Shown: positions 1 to 21,486 of the stretch, one piece after another
Numbering within the stretch: position 1 is the first letter of the stretch
Layout of the letters: each line of letters begins with the position of its first letter
Source: Escherichia phage vB_EcoM-BECP11
Sequence record: MW286157.1
DNA length: 64,000 bases
Strand: one strand, 5' to 3'
Made by a program: the position numbers and the translations under genes
The notes under the pieces: generated by a model
Seen by the model: only the letters and a program-made list of their open reading frames with translations
Database searches by the model: none
Told to the model about the DNA's origin: nothing

Positions 1-1103
1 TAACTTTGGTTTATGCTAAAGATAAATCATTTACCCGTAATTGCGCGCATGATTATAAATCATTTTCAATTCCGGTTTTATTGGCAAAAGAATACGATAA
101 AACACTTAAGCTGGTAAATGATTGTGATATTCTAATTATCAATTCAGTTCCTGCTACTTCAGTCGAAGAAGACACTATTAATAACTATAAAAAAATTATT
201 GATAACATTAAACCTTCGGTTCGTGTTGTAGTTTATCAACATGACCATTCTTCTCTTTCTTTGCGCCGAAATTTGGGATTAGAAGAAACTGTTCGTCGAG
301 CTGATGTTATTTTTAGTCATTCTGATAATGGTGATTTTAATAAAGTTCTGATGAAAGAATGGTATCCAGAAACTGTTTCTTTGTTTGATGATATTGAAGA
401 AGCACCGACTGTATACAACTTTCAGCCTCCTATGGATATTGCGAAGGTTCGATCAACCTACTGGAAAGATGTTTCTGAAATTAACATGAATGTCAACCGT
501 TGGATTGGTCGTACGACTACATGGAAAGGTTTTTATCAGATGTTTGATTTTCACGAAAAACATCTTAAACCTGCTGGGCTAAGTACTATTATGGAAGGTC
601 TGGAACGTTCTCCAGCGTTCATTCCTATTAAAGAAAAAGGAATTCCATACGAATATTATCGTCTTCATCAAGTAGACCAAATTAAAATTGCTCCTAATTT
701 GCCGACGCAAATTCTCGACCGTTATGTAAATAGCGAAATGCTTGAACGCATGAGTAAATCCGGATTTGGTTATCAGCTGAGTAAGTTGGATAAAAAATAT
801 CTACAACGTTCTTTAGAATATACTCATCTCGAGCTTGGTGCATGTGGAACAATTCCGGTATTTTGGAAATCTACTGGCGAAAATTTAAAATTCCGTGTTG
901 ATAATACTCCATTAATTTCTCATGATAGCGGTATCGTTTGGTTTGATGAAAATGACATGGAATCAACATTTGAACGTATTAAAGAACTGTCATCTGACCG
1001 AACTCTTTATGACCGTGAACGCGAAAAAGCTTATGAATTTTTGTATCAGCATCAAGATTCAAGCTTCTGCTTTAAAGAACAGTTTGACATTATTACAAAA
1101 TAA
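1..1103 (+). CDS. a-gt: alpha-glucosyltransferase, 5' end cut by window edge
   Basis: Frame open from position 3 to stop at 1101-1103; translation VYAKDKSFTR...EQFDIITK matches recalled T4 alpha-gt C-terminal region almost residue for residue. Confidence 0.9.
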   Translation, partial: TLVYAKDKSFTRNCAHDYKSFSIPVLLAKEYDKTLKLVNDCDILIINSVPATSVEEDTINNYKKIIDNIKPSVRVVVYQHDHSSLSLRRNLGLEETVRRADVIFSHSDNGDFNKVLMKEWYPETVSLFDDIEEAPTVYNFQPPMDIAKVRSTYWKDVSEINMNVNRWIGRTTTWKGFYQMFDFHEKHLKPAGLSTIMEGLERSPAFIPIKEKGIPYEYYRLHQVDQIKIAPNLPTQILDRYVNSEMLERMSKSGFGYQLSKLDKKYLQRSLEYTHLELGACGTIPVFWKSTGENLKFRVDNTPLISHDSGIVWFDENDMESTFERIKELSSDRTLYDREREKAYEFLYQHQDSSFCFKEQFDIITK

Positions 1104-7754: not shown

Positions 7755-7755
7755 T

Positions 7756-7977
7756 ATGACTGCTATAACCCCGCAAGAATACATGGCGTCTCTTAAAGAA
7801 AAATATAATCTTTCTGCAACAGAAACACTTTTTGATTTACCAGAAAATCTCCAACTAAAATTTCAGGTAGAATTTCAAAAATTAGTTCACCCAGAACAAA
7901 AACACTTTACCGCAGTGGTTAAGTCAATTAATGCAGATGGATTGACAATTTTTCACCGACAAATGGTATTAATTTAA
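7756..7977 (+). CDS. hypothetical protein, 73 aa
   Basis: ATG 7756 two nt after regA stop; followed by hairpin. Confidence 0.45.
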   Translation: MTAITPQEYMASLKEKYNLSATETLFDLPENLQLKFQVEFQKLVHPEQKHFTAVVKSINADGLTIFHRQMVLI

Positions 7978-10898: not shown

Positions 10899-10935
10899 AC
10901 AACTATCAACTACTGATACAGATTTGGAGAATAAA

Positions 10936-11172
10936 ATGAAAATTGTTATGGGATGTTTAGCAGTTTGTTTAGTTGCATTAGTAGCAGTTCCATTTGTTAG
11001 TGTTGAAAATGATACTCAACCTGTGATTGAATCTAGCACCGTTATTCACACTAATGGTAAAATATCAGTTAAAATTGATGATAATCTTCATGTGAATACA
11101 AATGGATCTTTAGGTGTGCAAATGGGTAATACCTGCATAAGCACTACTGGAGCAATTACTACTTGCATTTGA
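10936..11172 (+). CDS. small secreted protein, 78 aa, N-terminal signal peptide
   Basis: ATG 10936 after ttggagaataaa leader; hydrophobic N-terminus, Thr-rich C-terminus. Confidence 0.5.
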   Translation: MKIVMGCLAVCLVALVAVPFVSVENDTQPVIESSTVIHTNGKISVKIDDNLHVNTNGSLGVQMGNTCISTTGAITTCI

Positions 11173-11182
11173 GGAAATTATT

Positions 11183-11570: not shown

Positions 11571-11822
11571 ATGGAAACTTTAGTAGCAGGTTCAATTTTT
11601 ATGGTTTTAGTTTCAGGTGTGTTGGCTATTATTATATACATGCTTCCATGGTTTATCGCCTTGATGCGTGGGTCAAAATCGACAGTAGGAATCTTTTTCA
11701 CATCTTTACTGTTTAACTGGTCAATTATTGGTTGGTTTATTACATTTATTTGGTCAATTGCGGGTGAAACTAAAAAGTCTGCACAGCCAAATCAGGTAAT
11801 TATCATCAGAGAGAAGGAATGA
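11571..11822 (+). CDS. imm: immunity (superinfection exclusion) membrane protein Imm
   Basis: 83 aa, two hydrophobic helices, located between 43 and 42 as T4 imm. Confidence 0.75.
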   Translation: METLVAGSIFMVLVSGVLAIIIYMLPWFIALMRGSKSTVGIFFTSLLFNWSIIGWFITFIWSIAGETKKSAQPNQVIIIREKE

Positions 11823-11968
11823 AAAGCAAAATTATAACAGTGTTGCTTTTAATCTTGATGATTATAATAAGTATATACTATAGTGTAACGGTTCCTCTTA
11901 TGATTCCAACTATTATTTTAGGTTGGAGCTTATTACTGTTACAAGTTAAATATGAATGTATCAATTGA
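11819..11968 (+). CDS. 49 aa membrane peptide
   Basis: ATG 11819 overlaps imm stop (ATGA); almost entirely hydrophobic. Confidence 0.4.
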   Translation: MKSKIITVLLLILMIIISIYYSVTVPLMIPTIILGWSLLLLQVKYECIN

Positions 11969-11975
11969 GGTTTAA

Positions 11976-12716
11976 ATGATTAGTGACTCTATGACAGTTG
12001 AAGAAATCCGTCTTCATTTGGGGCTTGCATTAAAAGAAAAAGATTTCGTAGTTGATAAAACTGGTGTTAAAACTATTGAAATTATTGGCGCATCATTTGT
12101 AGCAGATGAACCGTTTATTTTTGGCGCTCTTAATGATGAATACATTCAGCGCGAACTTGAATGGTATAAATCTAAGAGCTTGTTTGTTAAAGATATTCCA
12201 GGTGAAACACCAAAGATTTGGCAGCAGGTAGCATCTTCTAAAGGCGAAATTAACTCGAATTATGGTTGGGCTATTTGGTCAGAAGATAACTATGCCCAGT
12301 ATGATATGTGTTTAGCTGAACTTGGTCAAAATCCTGATTCTCGACGTGGTATCATGATTTATACTCGTCCATCCATGCAATTTGACTACAATAAAGATGG
12401 TATGTCAGATTTCATGTGTACTAATACAGTACAGTACCTGATTCGTGATAAGAAAGTCAATGCAGTAGTAAGCATGCGCTCAAATGACGTGGTCTTCGGA
12501 TTCCGTAATGATTATGCATGGCAAAAATACGTATTAGATAAATTAGTATCTGATTTGAATGCCGGCGATTCAACTCGTCAGTATAAAGCAGGTTCTATTA
12601 TATGGAATGTCGGAAGTCTTCATGTATATTCTCGTCATTTTTACTTGGTTGATCATTGGTGGAATACTGGCGAAACTCATATTGTGAAAAAAGACTATAA
12701 AGGTGAGTGGAAATGA
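11976..12716 (+). CDS. 42: dCMP hydroxymethylase gp42
   Basis: 246 aa thymidylate-synthase-like fold protein; size and position as T4 gp42. Confidence 0.9.
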   Translation: MISDSMTVEEIRLHLGLALKEKDFVVDKTGVKTIEIIGASFVADEPFIFGALNDEYIQRELEWYKSKSLFVKDIPGETPKIWQQVASSKGEINSNYGWAIWSEDNYAQYDMCLAELGQNPDSRRGIMIYTRPSMQFDYNKDGMSDFMCTNTVQYLIRDKKVNAVVSMRSNDVVFGFRNDYAWQKYVLDKLVSDLNAGDSTRQYKAGSIIWNVGSLHVYSRHFYLVDHWWNTGETHIVKKDYKGEWK

Positions 12717-13555
12717 TTCAATTCGTAATTCCAAGTTATCAGCGTGTCGGGGCAGTTTCTGCCCTTGATATGTTTCCGACTGATTATGAACCCCATATTG
12801 TAGTGCGTGAACATGAAGAAAAAGCTTATCATGACGCTTATGGGTCTAGAGCTAAAATTATAACTATTCCTGATGATGTAAACGGAATTGCCGGTACTCG
12901 TAAAGCAATTACTGATATGTATGCAGGTCAACGAATTTGGATGATTGACGATGATACTACTATTCGTATGAGTTCAATGCGAAAAAGAGATGACCGTCGT
13001 TGTGTAGATAAAGTCAATCAATTAACCCATAAACAGTTCTATGAATTGATTCAATACGTTGAAGATGCCATGGATTGCGGGTATTATCATGGTCATGCTC
13101 GCCTACCAATTTTTAAAATTACTTCATCTTGGGGTAATTATCGTGAAAATTCATATGGATTCACGAATACATGGTATGACCTTGGAAAACTTACGACAGA
13201 ACAAATTGGGTATGGAAAAATTGATTTGTGTGAAGATATGTATGCATTTCTCAATTTAATTAATCAAGGTTATCCGCATTTGGCCTTGTTCAAATATCTG
13301 GTTGTATCTGGAAAAGCACAAGCTCCTGGCGGGTGCAGTTCAATTCGTAGTAATTCTAAACATAATAGAGCGCTTGAGCAAATCAATAGAGAGTTTCCAG
13401 AGCAAGCTCGTTGGAAAACTTCTAATATTGAAAAACGAAAATCGTTGGGTGAAGAAGACGAGCCATTAAAGGTTCTTCGCATGTGTGTTTCGCGTAAAGA
13501 AAAATCAGAAGCATTTCATAAATTTAATGCTATTCATCCGATAGCAGTTGATTAA
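12713..13555 (+). CDS. GT-A type glycosyltransferase in the beta-gt position (possibly beta-glucosyl-HMC-alpha-glucosyltransferase type)
   Basis: 280 aa; ATG 12713 overlaps gene 42 stop; DxD-like WMIDDDT motif; not T4 beta-gt (351 aa, unrelated sequence). Confidence 0.6.
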   Translation: MIQFVIPSYQRVGAVSALDMFPTDYEPHIVVREHEEKAYHDAYGSRAKIITIPDDVNGIAGTRKAITDMYAGQRIWMIDDDTTIRMSSMRKRDDRRCVDKVNQLTHKQFYELIQYVEDAMDCGYYHGHARLPIFKITSSWGNYRENSYGFTNTWYDLGKLTTEQIGYGKIDLCEDMYAFLNLINQGYPHLALFKYLVVSGKAQAPGGCSSIRSNSKHNRALEQINREFPEQARWKTSNIEKRKSLGEEDEPLKVLRMCVSRKEKSEAFHKFNAIHPIAVD

Positions 13556-13632
13556 TGCCTAAATTTATTGTGTTATAATTACTTTATCTTTAACCAGTGA
13601 GGAAAATATAATGATGCCTATGGAAAAAATGA

Positions 13633-14814
13633 ATGTCTATTGCAGATTTAAAATCCCGTTTGATTAAAGCTTCCACTTCTAAAATGACTGCTGAACTGAC
13701 TACATCTAAATTCTTTAATGAAAAGGATGTAATTCGTACAAAAATTCCAATGCTTAATATTGCTATTTCTGGTGCGATTGATGGCGGTATGCAGTCTGGT
13801 TTAACTATTTTCGCAGGGCCTTCTAAACACTTTAAATCAAATATGTCTTTGACTATGGTTGCGGCATATTTGAACAAATATCCTGACGCGGTTTGTCTAT
13901 TCTATGATAGCGAATTTGGTATTACTCCAGCTTATTTGCGATCCATGGGAGTTGACCCGGAACGAGTAATTCATACGCCGATTCAGTCAGTTGAACAGCT
14001 AAAAATTGATATGGTGAACCAGCTTGAAGCTATTGAGCGTGGTGAAAAGGTTATTGTATTCATCGACTCAATTGGTAATATGGCTTCTAAGAAAGAAACG
14101 GAAGATGCCTTAAATGAAAAATCTGTGGCAGATATGACTCGTGCTAAATCACTGAAGTCATTATTCCGTATTGTTACTCCTTACTTTAGCATTAAAAATA
14201 TTCCATGTGTTGCGGTTAACCATACAATTGAAACAATTGAAATGTTTAGTAAAACCGTGATGACAGGTGGTACAGGCGTAATGTATTCGGCTGATACTGT
14301 ATTCATTATCGGTAAGCGTCAGATTAAAGATGGTTCTGATCTTCAGGGGTATCAATTTGTTCTAAATGTAGAAAAATCTCGTACTGTTAAAGAAAAAAGT
14401 AAATTCTTTATTGATGTTAAATTTGACGGTGGTATCGATCCTTATTCTGGATTGTTAGATATGGCTCTAGAATTAGGATTCGTGGTAAAACCTAAAAATG
14501 GCTGGTATGCTCGTGAATTTCTTGACGAAGAAACCGGCGAGATGATTCGCGAAGAAAAATCTTGGCGTGCAAAAGATACCAACTGCACTACATTCTGGGG
14601 TCCTTTATTTAAGCATCAACCATTCCGAGATGCTATTAAACGTGCTTATCAGTTAGGTGCTATTGATAGTAATGAAATTGTTGAAGCTGAAGTTGATGAA
14701 TTGATTAACTCAAAGGTTGAAAAATTTAAATCTCCAGAAAGTAAAAGTAAATCAGCAGCTGATTTAGAAACTGACCTCGAGCAGTTAAGTGATATGGAAG
14801 AATTTAATGAATAA
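13633..14814 (+). CDS. uvsX: RecA-like recombinase UvsX
   Basis: 393 aa; sequence ...DLKSRLIKASTSK...GPSKHFKSN... matches recalled T4 UvsX. Confidence 0.95.
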   Translation: MSIADLKSRLIKASTSKMTAELTTSKFFNEKDVIRTKIPMLNIAISGAIDGGMQSGLTIFAGPSKHFKSNMSLTMVAAYLNKYPDAVCLFYDSEFGITPAYLRSMGVDPERVIHTPIQSVEQLKIDMVNQLEAIERGEKVIVFIDSIGNMASKKETEDALNEKSVADMTRAKSLKSLFRIVTPYFSIKNIPCVAVNHTIETIEMFSKTVMTGGTGVMYSADTVFIIGKRQIKDGSDLQGYQFVLNVEKSRTVKEKSKFFIDVKFDGGIDPYSGLLDMALELGFVVKPKNGWYAREFLDEETGEMIREEKSWRAKDTNCTTFWGPLFKHQPFRDAIKRAYQLGAIDSNEIVEAEVDELINSKVEKFKSPESKSKSAADLETDLEQLSDMEEFNE

Positions 14815-19637: not shown

Positions 19638-19834
19638 ATTAACCCAACTAAAGCAAATGCTAAATCTACAAATGTATCAAGAGTAACTACTGGAATATTA
19701 ACACCATGTGCAATTGCAATTGGTGATAAAATAAAGTTCCAGAGTAAAATTCCTACCATAGCAGAAATAGTAAAAGCTATACGTTTCTTATTACCTTTGA
19801 TGGCATTAACAAGTGCCATTAATTTTTGTACCAT
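19634..19834 (-). CDS. 66 aa predicted membrane protein, antisense to flanking early genes
   Basis: strong SD aaggagg 4 nt before ATG on minus strand; two hydrophobic segments; convergent with gene 61. Confidence 0.35.
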   Translation of the reverse strand: MVQKLMALVNAIKGNKKRIAFTISAMVGILLWNFILSPIAIAHGVNIPVVTLDTFVDLAFALVGLI

Positions 19835-19847
19835 ATGTCCTCCTTAT

Positions 19848-19871
19848 TGCTTTATATATTTATTGTATAAT
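19848..19871 (+). promoter_or_regulatory. middle-type promoter: TGCTTTA, 11 nt, TATAAT
   Basis: tgcttta 19848-19854, tataat 19866-19871, 35 nt upstream of gene 56 ATG. Confidence 0.5.
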
Positions 19872-19905
19872 TAATCTACTAACCCATGAATTGAAAGGAA
19901 AAATA

Positions 19906-20424
19906 ATGGCTTACTTTAACGAATGTTCACAACTGATTGAAGGCGCTGATAAAGCTCAAAATGAATATTGGGATATTCTCGGTGATGAAAAAGACCCGCT
20001 GCAAGTTATGCTTGATATGCAGAAATCTTTACAGGTTCGTTTAGCTAAAGATAAACCTGAATATAACCGTCATCCTGATGATTTGGCTACTGCAGGTGAA
20101 GTTGTTGATTGGATGCGTAATCAGAAAGATTATATTGATGATGAATTCCGCGAACTTCTGACTTCTCTTGGTGGTATGAGCAATGGTGAAAAAGATGCAT
20201 CTGCTGTATGGAAACCTTGGAAGTCGCAGCATGGTGAACGTCGTGAAACTCTGATTACTGATTTGTCTCCACAAGACCAACTGGAAATTAAATTTGAAAT
20301 GATTGATATTCTCCATTTCGTTCTGAATATGTTCCAAGGTCTTGGTCTTACAGCAGAAGAAATCTTTAAACTTTATTACCTGAAAAATGCTGAAAATTTC
20401 GCACGTCAAGACCGAGGTTATTAA
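19906..20424 (+). CDS. 56: dCTP pyrophosphatase gp56 (MazG-like)
   Basis: 172 aa from ATG 19906; EEFRELL...KLYYLKNAENFARQDRGY resembles recalled T4 gp56. Confidence 0.75.
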   Translation: MAYFNECSQLIEGADKAQNEYWDILGDEKDPLQVMLDMQKSLQVRLAKDKPEYNRHPDDLATAGEVVDWMRNQKDYIDDEFRELLTSLGGMSNGEKDASAVWKPWKSQHGERRETLITDLSPQDQLEIKFEMIDILHFVLNMFQGLGLTAEEIFKLYYLKNAENFARQDRGY

Positions 20425-20564
20425 TGTCTCGTTTAAATAAACGTCAACTCAAAAAGTTGAATAAGAAAAGGGCGAAAGCCCTTACTGCTTTATTACGTAA
20501 TGAAATAACTAAAGAAATAGACCAAGAGATTATTGAACAACTCTGGAAAGCCGCTAAATTATAA
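20424..20564 (+). CDS. 46 aa basic peptide
   Basis: ATG overlaps gene 56 stop; contains internal hairpin agggcgaaagccct; may be non-coding. Confidence 0.3.
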   Translation: MSRLNKRQLKKLNKKRAKALTALLRNEITKEIDQEIIEQLWKAAKL

Positions 20565-20566
20565 GT

Positions 20567-20574
20567 TATAAATA
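20567..20574 (+). promoter_or_regulatory. late promoter TATAAATA
   Basis: exact tataaata 32 nt upstream of soc ATG. Confidence 0.65.
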
Positions 20575-20605
20575 CACCTGTAATTAAACAATAAAGGAGT
20601 TTATT

Positions 20606-20842
20606 ATGGGTGGTTTCGTTAACATCAAGACCTTTACTCATCCAGCAGGTGAAGGCAAAGAAGTTAAAGGTATGGAAGTTTCTGTTCCATTTGAAATCTA
20701 TTCTAACGAGCATCGTATTGCAGATTCTCATTATCAGACCTTTCCTTCTGAAAAGGCGGCATATTCTACTGTAGTTTCTGATGCAGCTGACTGGAAAACT
20801 AAGAATGCTGCGATGTTTACACCTACAGAAATAGGTGGTTAA
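20606..20842 (+). CDS. soc: small outer capsid protein Soc
   Basis: 78 aa; motif HYQTFPSEKAAYSTV as recalled for T4 Soc. Confidence 0.75.
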   Translation: MGGFVNIKTFTHPAGEGKEVKGMEVSVPFEIYSNEHRIADSHYQTFPSEKAAYSTVVSDAADWKTKNAAMFTPTEIGG

Positions 20843-20850
20843 TAATTTAA

Positions 20851-20876
20851 GGAATCCTTCGGGGTTCCTTTTTTTC
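20851..20876 (+). terminator. rho-independent terminator ggaatcc-ttcg-gggttcc plus T7
   Basis: stem-loop then tttttttc directly after soc. Confidence 0.75.
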
Positions 20877-20885
20877 ATTTTACCG

Positions 20886-20915
20886 GTTTACATATCAAAA
20901 TGAGTATGGTATAAT
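20886..20915 (+). promoter_or_regulatory. early promoter (-35 GTTTAC, -10 TATAAT)
   Basis: gtttac 20886-20891, tataat 20910-20915. Confidence 0.6.
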
Positions 20916-20941
20916 AGAATTATCTTATAGAGGAGAGCACT

Positions 20942-21148
20942 ATGTTAAATCGTTGGATTAAACCAAATGAAGATTTAGATATTATCATTTCACGACATGT
21001 AATGAAGAAATATGAACTGCAGCCATGGTCTACAGAAGTTGTTGTGCATTCATTTATGATGTACGCAGATGGTTCTGTTGAATTTAATGCAGAGATTAGG
21101 TATGATTATGGTGAGAAGCAAGTCGAATTCAAAAGAGGCTTTTTGTAA
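20942..21148 (+). CDS. hypothetical protein, 68 aa
   Basis: ATG after SD gaggagag; first gene of an uncharacterised early block. Confidence 0.45.
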   Translation: MLNRWIKPNEDLDIIISRHVMKKYELQPWSTEVVVHSFMMYADGSVEFNAEIRYDYGEKQVEFKRGFL

Positions 21149-21486
21149 TGTTTATCTTTAATTGGTTTAAAAATTTCTTTACAGATTTTTTCTCTACAAC
21201 TCCGGGAGAAGGTGTAGTTCCTATTTCAAATGACTACCTTCCTTTAACTGTAGTTGAGTATGTTTATATGGGAGATGGAACAGTTGAAGAAGTTACTATG
21301 ACTTATGAAGAAGCCCAAGAATATTATAAAAATCCTTGGCGCTGGTCAGTACCTACATCATCTAACACACAGAATACACAGTCTAGTTCTGATTCATATG
21401 ATACTAATGTTCCTGTTCATGTATGGACGGGCGATTCATGTGGAAGTTCTTGTGATTCTAGTTGTTCATCTACATCCTGTGATTGA
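21148..21486 (+). CDS. hypothetical protein, 112 aa, hydrophobic N-terminus and Cys/Ser-rich C-terminal tail
   Basis: C-terminus [20 protein letters not shown]; ATGA-type coupling with upstream ORF. Confidence 0.5.

Follow-up and report, generated by a model that had tools for sequence, protein, structure and literature searches.

The gene after gene 42 in Escherichia phage vB_EcoM-BECP11 very probably encodes a T2/T6-type beta-glucosyl-HMC-alpha-glucosyltransferase

The beta-glucosyl-HMC-alpha-glucosyltransferase gene of phages T2 and T6 was reportedly cloned by Winkler and Rueger, in a paper said to have appeared in Nucleic Acids Research in 1993. The enzyme (ba-gt below), of class EC 2.4.1.28, also goes under the names glucosyl-DNA beta-glucosyltransferase, TAGT, ggt and g-gt. 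When its gene is deleted from T6, gentiobiosyl-hmC is gone, only alpha-glucosyl-hmC is left, and the DNA turns into a substrate of the Brig1 glycosylase (PMC11078745); similarly, BapA frees glucose from the DNA of a T6 delta-g-gt mutant but not from wild-type T6 DNA (bioRxiv 10.64898/2026.02.25.707755). HPLC/MS of the Durham Tequatrovirus phages Solly, TB37, QOTSP, NR1, CP, Some and EH2 gave about one-third 5-hmdC and two-thirds alpha-gentiobiosyl-mdC, with alpha-glucosyl-mdC at background level and the beta-glucosyl form undetected, and the authors of that work ascribe the second glucose to the TAGT protein encoded in the T4 beta-gt position (PMC13390438). T2 has the same alpha-gt and ba-gt gene pair, yet contains only about 5% gentiobiosyl-hmC (PMC6024577). 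The beta-gt of T4, on the other hand, has a GT-B fold (PF09198; PDB 1JG7), and the T4 combination of alpha and beta transferases is present in just six of 753 GT-encoding phage genomes; in the vast majority of these genomes an alpha-GT or a beta-GT is paired with a TAGT, and TAGT homologs have been found with an alpha-GT, with a beta-GT, or alone (PMC13216743).

The 64,000 nucleotide stretch of BECP11 DNA that was analyzed (MW286157.1; "the window") is, over its first 25 kb, about 97% identical to a large number of Tequatrovirus genomes and fully identical to no genome, and its source is therefore an ordinary T-even phage of mosaic make-up. When the T4 region from gene 42 through uvsX is compared with the window by blastn, the similarity stops at bp 12,698, where 18 nt of gene 42 remain, and restarts at bp 13,645, 12 nt into uvsX (Table 1). 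The slot thus bounded holds 1941 bp in T4 (beta-gt together with segA, a homing endonuclease gene) and 946 bp in BECP11, where ba-gt is its only gene; segA is absent from it, and no homolog of T4 beta-gt or SegA is present elsewhere in the 64-kb window. A preliminary description of this DNA had reported a 280 amino acid protein with a DxD-type motif (WMIDDDT) in place of the 351 amino acid T4 beta-gt, without resemblance to it, and a T4-like alpha-gt at the start of the window, and these observations hold. The ORF is intact, the motif comprises its residues 76–82 (bp 12,938–12,958), the size given for T4 beta-gt agrees, the best BLASTP alignment to T4 beta-gt (E 0.29 over 10 residues) is noise, and alpha-gt is present with its N-terminus cut off by the window edge.

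Table 1 Features of the BECP11 window that bear on the gene 42–uvsX slot and on the hmC pathway
Feature	Position (bp)	Strand	Basis
alpha-gt, C-terminal 366 of 400 aa (residues 35–400); would make the alpha-glucosyl-hmC acceptor	3..1103	+	PF11440, E 5e-219
Gene 42, dCMP hydroxymethylase (hmC precursor)	11976..12716	+	94.7% nucleotide identity to T4 over 723 nt; Pfam thymidylate synthase; annotations
946-bp segment without DNA similarity to T4	12699..13644	+	blastn of T4 gene 42..uvsX against the window
ba-gt	12713..13555	+	intact ORF, 280 aa; PHROG 842, PF20691, T2/T6 identity
R11 codon, within the N-terminal IPSYQR loop; Arg in BECP11, His in T2	12743..12745	+	alignment column invariant
DDD (D79–D81), DxD-type motif; putative metal and UDP-sugar binding	12947..12955	+	invariant to 32% identity; after model strand 74–79
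uvsX recombinase, downstream slot boundary	13633..14814	+	ORF, annotation, T4 alignment
Gene 56, dCTPase/dUTPase, hmC pathway (keeps dCTP out of phage DNA)	19906..20424	+	tblastn; Pfam dUTPase_2

A mechanical list of open reading frames prolongs the ba-gt frame to a GTG at bp 12,707 (282 amino acids), and the ATG at bp 12,713 is the annotated start of the T2 and NR1 homologs (843-nt coding sequences). This ATG overlaps the gene 42 TGA codon by four bases as ATGA (..GGAAATGATT..), whereas T4 has 23 nt between gene 42 and beta-gt; the overlap suggests that ba-gt translation may be coupled to that of gene 42. In a promoter and terminator scan of bp 11,700–13,900 the counts were not above those of shuffled sequence, and the sole terminator-like hairpin lies inside the coding sequence. 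That hairpin is GC-rich (GGGGCAG TTT CTGCCCT), has a T-rich run after it, is located at bp 12,749–12,765, 37 nt inside ba-gt, and has the same sequence in T2, T6 and NR1.

In direct full-length alignments, the comparison that the preliminary description had proposed, the BECP11 protein is 98% identical to the ba-gt protein of T2 (AP018813) and 99% identical to that of T6 (AP018814), from which it differs by five and three substitutions, respectively. It is like them in its length of 280 amino acids, in the position of its gene between gene 42 and uvsX, in its alpha-gt partner and in its DDD motif. It matches PHROG 842 ("beta-glucosyl-HMC-alpha-glucosyltransferase") at E 1.6e-88 and Pfam family PF20691 (TET-associated glycosyltransferase, TAGT) at 41.5 bits (E 1.8e-10), above the 27.5-bit gathering cut-off of that family. 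The latter match is full-length (residues 3–207 on positions 2–205 of the 205-position profile), and PF20691 is the sole Pfam family reported for the protein; NCBIfam has no model for it. RefSeq and many other records label its homologs beta-glucosyl-HMC-alpha-glucosyltransferase. Sequence similarity does not place it in the T4 beta-gt family (PF09198, GT-B). With orthology to the T2 and T6 genes, the same location between gene 42 and uvsX, and an alpha-gt and hmC pathway without a beta-gt in the 64-kb window, there is little doubt that the gene after gene 42 is a T2/T6-type ba-gt, a small TAGT-family enzyme with a GT-A fold that belongs to the gentiobiosyl-hmC pathway. The first suggestion in the preliminary description, T2/T6-type gentiobiosylation, is therefore supported by these identities and annotations as well as by the T6 deletion and the HPLC/MS of near-identical phages, and since the protein is 98–99% identical to the T2 and T6 glucosyltransferases, the arabinosyltransferase that had been mentioned there as an alternative is unnecessary. 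The gene, its product and its role are already known, so the finding is correct but ordinary.

Homologs of ba-gt were found by tblastn in 688 of 50,697 phage records searched. Among these, 471 are at least 95% identical to it in amino acid sequence, and about 200, in phages of Klebsiella, Enterobacter, Salmonella and Citrobacter, are 60–80% identical. Compared with other TAGT members, the BECP11 protein falls in a Tequatrovirus subgroup; identity to it is about 65% for homologs from Klebsiella, Enterobacter and Salmonella phages and about 50% for those from Serratia phages. Homologs from other genera that are 48–77% identical keep a coherent pattern of conservation, which marks ba-gt as a genuine gene rather than a chance ORF. 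The best database match to the protein is 99.6% identical and no record is identical; the best records match the gene 42–ba-gt–uvsX segment at 98.4–98.7% nucleotide identity, and at least 80% of its length is covered in 517 records. The combination of alpha-gt with ba-gt is the majority genotype, and T4, with its alpha and beta pair, is the exception. A departure from the T4 sugar pattern, as had been proposed for this phage, would therefore not be unusual, given how rare the T4 pair is.

No relative of ba-gt with a solved structure emerged from a phmmer search of PDB sequences, and an AlphaFold2 model was built on nine homologs of 32–77% identity. Its confidence is moderate (mean pLDDT 74, pTM 0.75), with pLDDT below 50 in the loops at residues 132–140 and 197–210. 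The model has alternating strand and helix elements, and the DDD motif comes after the strand formed by residues 74–79; the DxD motif of GT-A enzymes sits after such a strand. As modeled, then, the protein has a GT-A-like fold, with its DxD following a central beta strand, and with the full-length profile match it shows no difference that matters from the TAGT family. Columns that are invariant in homologs down to 32% identity include P7, S8, Y9 and R11 of the IPSYQR loop, D79–D81, and D175 (in "CEDMY").

The route to gentiobiosylated DNA would begin with gp42 and gp56, which would secure phage DNA synthesis with 5-hydroxymethylcytosine (hmC), and alpha-gt would then put an alpha-linked glucose on hmC from host UDP-glucose. 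The ba-gt protein would take another glucose from UDP-glucose and attach it to the first at its 6-OH through a beta linkage, and the product would be gentiobiosyl-hmC. If GT2 enzymes are a guide, DDD may hold a divalent metal and the pyrophosphate of UDP, and an acidic residue such as D175 may serve as base for an inverting transfer, in which the anomeric configuration would be inverted from UDP-alpha-Glc to the beta product; such a transfer with an acidic base fits a beta product made from UDP-alpha-glucose. These metal-binding and catalytic roles of individual residues are putative. The beta-1,6 transfer to alpha-glucosyl-hmC is itself assigned through relatives, namely the T6 deletion mutants and the HPLC/MS of phages whose proteins are 98.6–98.9% identical to that of BECP11 (Some and EH2 98.9%; NR1 98.6%, with four residues different). 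The enzyme would thus resemble T4 beta-gt in the slot after gene 42, the UDP-glucose donor and the beta linkage on phage DNA, but it has no sequence similarity to T4 beta-gt, its GT-A fold differs from the GT-B fold of the T4 enzyme, and its acceptor would be alpha-glucosyl-hmC where that of T4 beta-gt is bare hmC. It is hardly credible that its target is something other than DNA, for example the host envelope or a protein, because although the GT-A fold alone does not specify an acceptor, T6 genetics link the ortholog to DNA modification and the BECP11 gene lies within the hmC operon, apparently coupled to gene 42.

The alpha-gt fragment is 99% identical to the T2 and NR1 proteins and 90% identical to those of T4, T6 and Geo. 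By tblastn the gene 56 protein is about 70% identical to gp56 of T2 and T6, while neighboring genes are about 97% identical; the same gene 56 allele is present at 99.8–99.9% nucleotide identity in ECML-363, JY01 and SfPhi01, where it is annotated as dCTPase, and this pattern of identity marks it as a mosaic allele replacement. A tblastn search with T2 Dam found no homolog of dam (DNA adenine methylase) in the 64-kb window. In T2 and Geo dam lies between gene 56 and the primase gene, and none is annotated there in T6 (AP018814) or NR1; in BECP11 this region (bp 19,640–21,150) contains an unassigned 144 amino acid ORF on the minus strand (bp 20,444–20,878). Two further small segments flank gene 43. 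The segment at bp 7755–7973 has no DNA match in T2, T4, T6 or NR1, and a small ORF there between regA and gene 43 (bp 7756–7977) hits the Pfam family PF25760 (Phage RB18 ORF43.1; E 1.9e-29). After gene 43, the segment at bp 10,917–11,182 is a small mosaic difference: NR1 has it, T2, T4 and T6 lack any DNA match to it, and it contains an 82 amino acid ORF with a hydrophobic N-terminus (bp 10,924–11,172).

Because T2 carries both genes and is so poorly gentiobiosylated, gene presence is no secure guide to how far the second glucosylation goes, and the alleles were therefore compared (Table 2).

Table 2 Alleles of alpha-gt and ba-gt in phages of described DNA glucosylation (differences from the window, counted over 366 amino acids for alpha-gt; window residue first)
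Phage	Measured glucosylation	alpha-gt	ba-gt
NR1	~2/3 gentiobiosyl	3 differences (99.2% identical)	4: D24N, H40Y, H106R, K107E
T2	~5% gentiobiosyl	4 differences	5: R11H, H40Y, H106R, K107E, P251S
T6	~72% gentiobiosyl	36 differences	3: H40N, D55G, K107E, plus record-specific lesion
Geo	hmC : mono : di ~1:2:2	36 differences	10 differences
T4	mono-glucosyl only	36 differences	without ba-gt

The alpha-gt allele (T2-type or T6-type) was considered as the setter of the mono- to diglucosyl ratio and was rejected, since NR1 has a T2-type allele and is highly gentiobiosylated, and Geo has a T6-type allele and is intermediate. What keeps T2 low is thus not its alpha-gt allele. The ba-gt of T2 differs from that of BECP11 in having His rather than Arg at position 11, where codon 11 is CAT in AP018813 (L001:15093–15095, minus strand) and CGT in the window. 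Within the family, homologs down to 32% identity all have R11; R11H is present in all listed T2 records and in SV76, and Arg is present in the window and in every other homolog that was read. The exact T2 sequence of the first 75 nt of the gene occurs in only eight records, seven of T2 and that of SV76, and the three nearest relatives read (RB32, EC.W14-2 and AdolfPortmann) differ from this T2 5′ end by a single base, CGT (Arg11) in place of CAT (His11). R11H is therefore a candidate cause of the low gentiobiosylation of T2, and one tentative explanation of the 60-year-old difference between T2 and T6 (5% and 72% gentiobiosyl-hmC), possible though not the one on which we would wager, is that T2 ba-gt is hypomorphic through R11H, perhaps together with P251S. 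The T6 records have oddities of their own, which are unexpected in the phage that defines high gentiobiosylation. In AP018814 (L002:14135–14974) one GAT of (GAT)3 is missing, so that the protein has DD in place of DDD and 279 amino acids; in MH550421 (L006:2951–2953) codon 10 is changed from CAG to TAG (amber), and the gene is annotated from Met20 with 261 amino acids. These lesions may be stock mutations or sequencing errors, and the BECP11 gene has neither.

In BECP11 ba-gt, R11, P251 and DDD are all intact, and neither T2-specific substitution is present. It is improbable that the BECP11 enzyme is nevertheless as weakly active as in T2, with DNA that is mainly mono-alpha-glucosyl-hmC and has a few per cent of gentiobiosyl-hmC: the alpha-gt fragment is of the T2 type, and T2 itself is a precedent for the low state of this gene pair, but NR1 reaches the high state with a T2-type alpha-gt, so that this allele does not set the ratio, and the residue altered in T2 is the invariant one that BECP11 retains. 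More improbable still is a TAGT-family transferase of changed specificity, using another donor sugar, forming another linkage or acting directly on bare hmC. The varied partners of TAGT homologs indicate that specificity varies within the family (PMC13216743), and the window has K107 where T2, T6, NR1 and Geo all have E; but the protein is only three to five residues away from enzymes of phages with measured gentiobiosyl-hmC, none of them in an invariant column. A T2/T6-type ba-gt that lacks R11H leads to the prediction of a T6- or NR1-like pattern, and from the sequence gentiobiosyl-hmC should predominate in BECP11 DNA, bare hmC should account for about a quarter to a third, and mono-alpha-glucosyl-hmC should be scarce.

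The presence of ba-gt thus predicts BECP11 DNA that is gentiobiosylated and not T4-like. Published work connects the gentiobiosylated state with DNA that resists Brig1 glycosylase in vitro and the deglucosylating activity of BapA (PMC11078745; bioRxiv 10.64898/2026.02.25.707755) and that stays sensitive to enzymes of the GmrSD/BrxU type. This is relevant to host range and to the cloning, restriction digestion and sequencing of the DNA. If T2 ba-gt is indeed an R11H hypomorph, majority gentiobiosyl-hmC would be the natural condition of phages with alpha-gt and ba-gt, BECP11 included.
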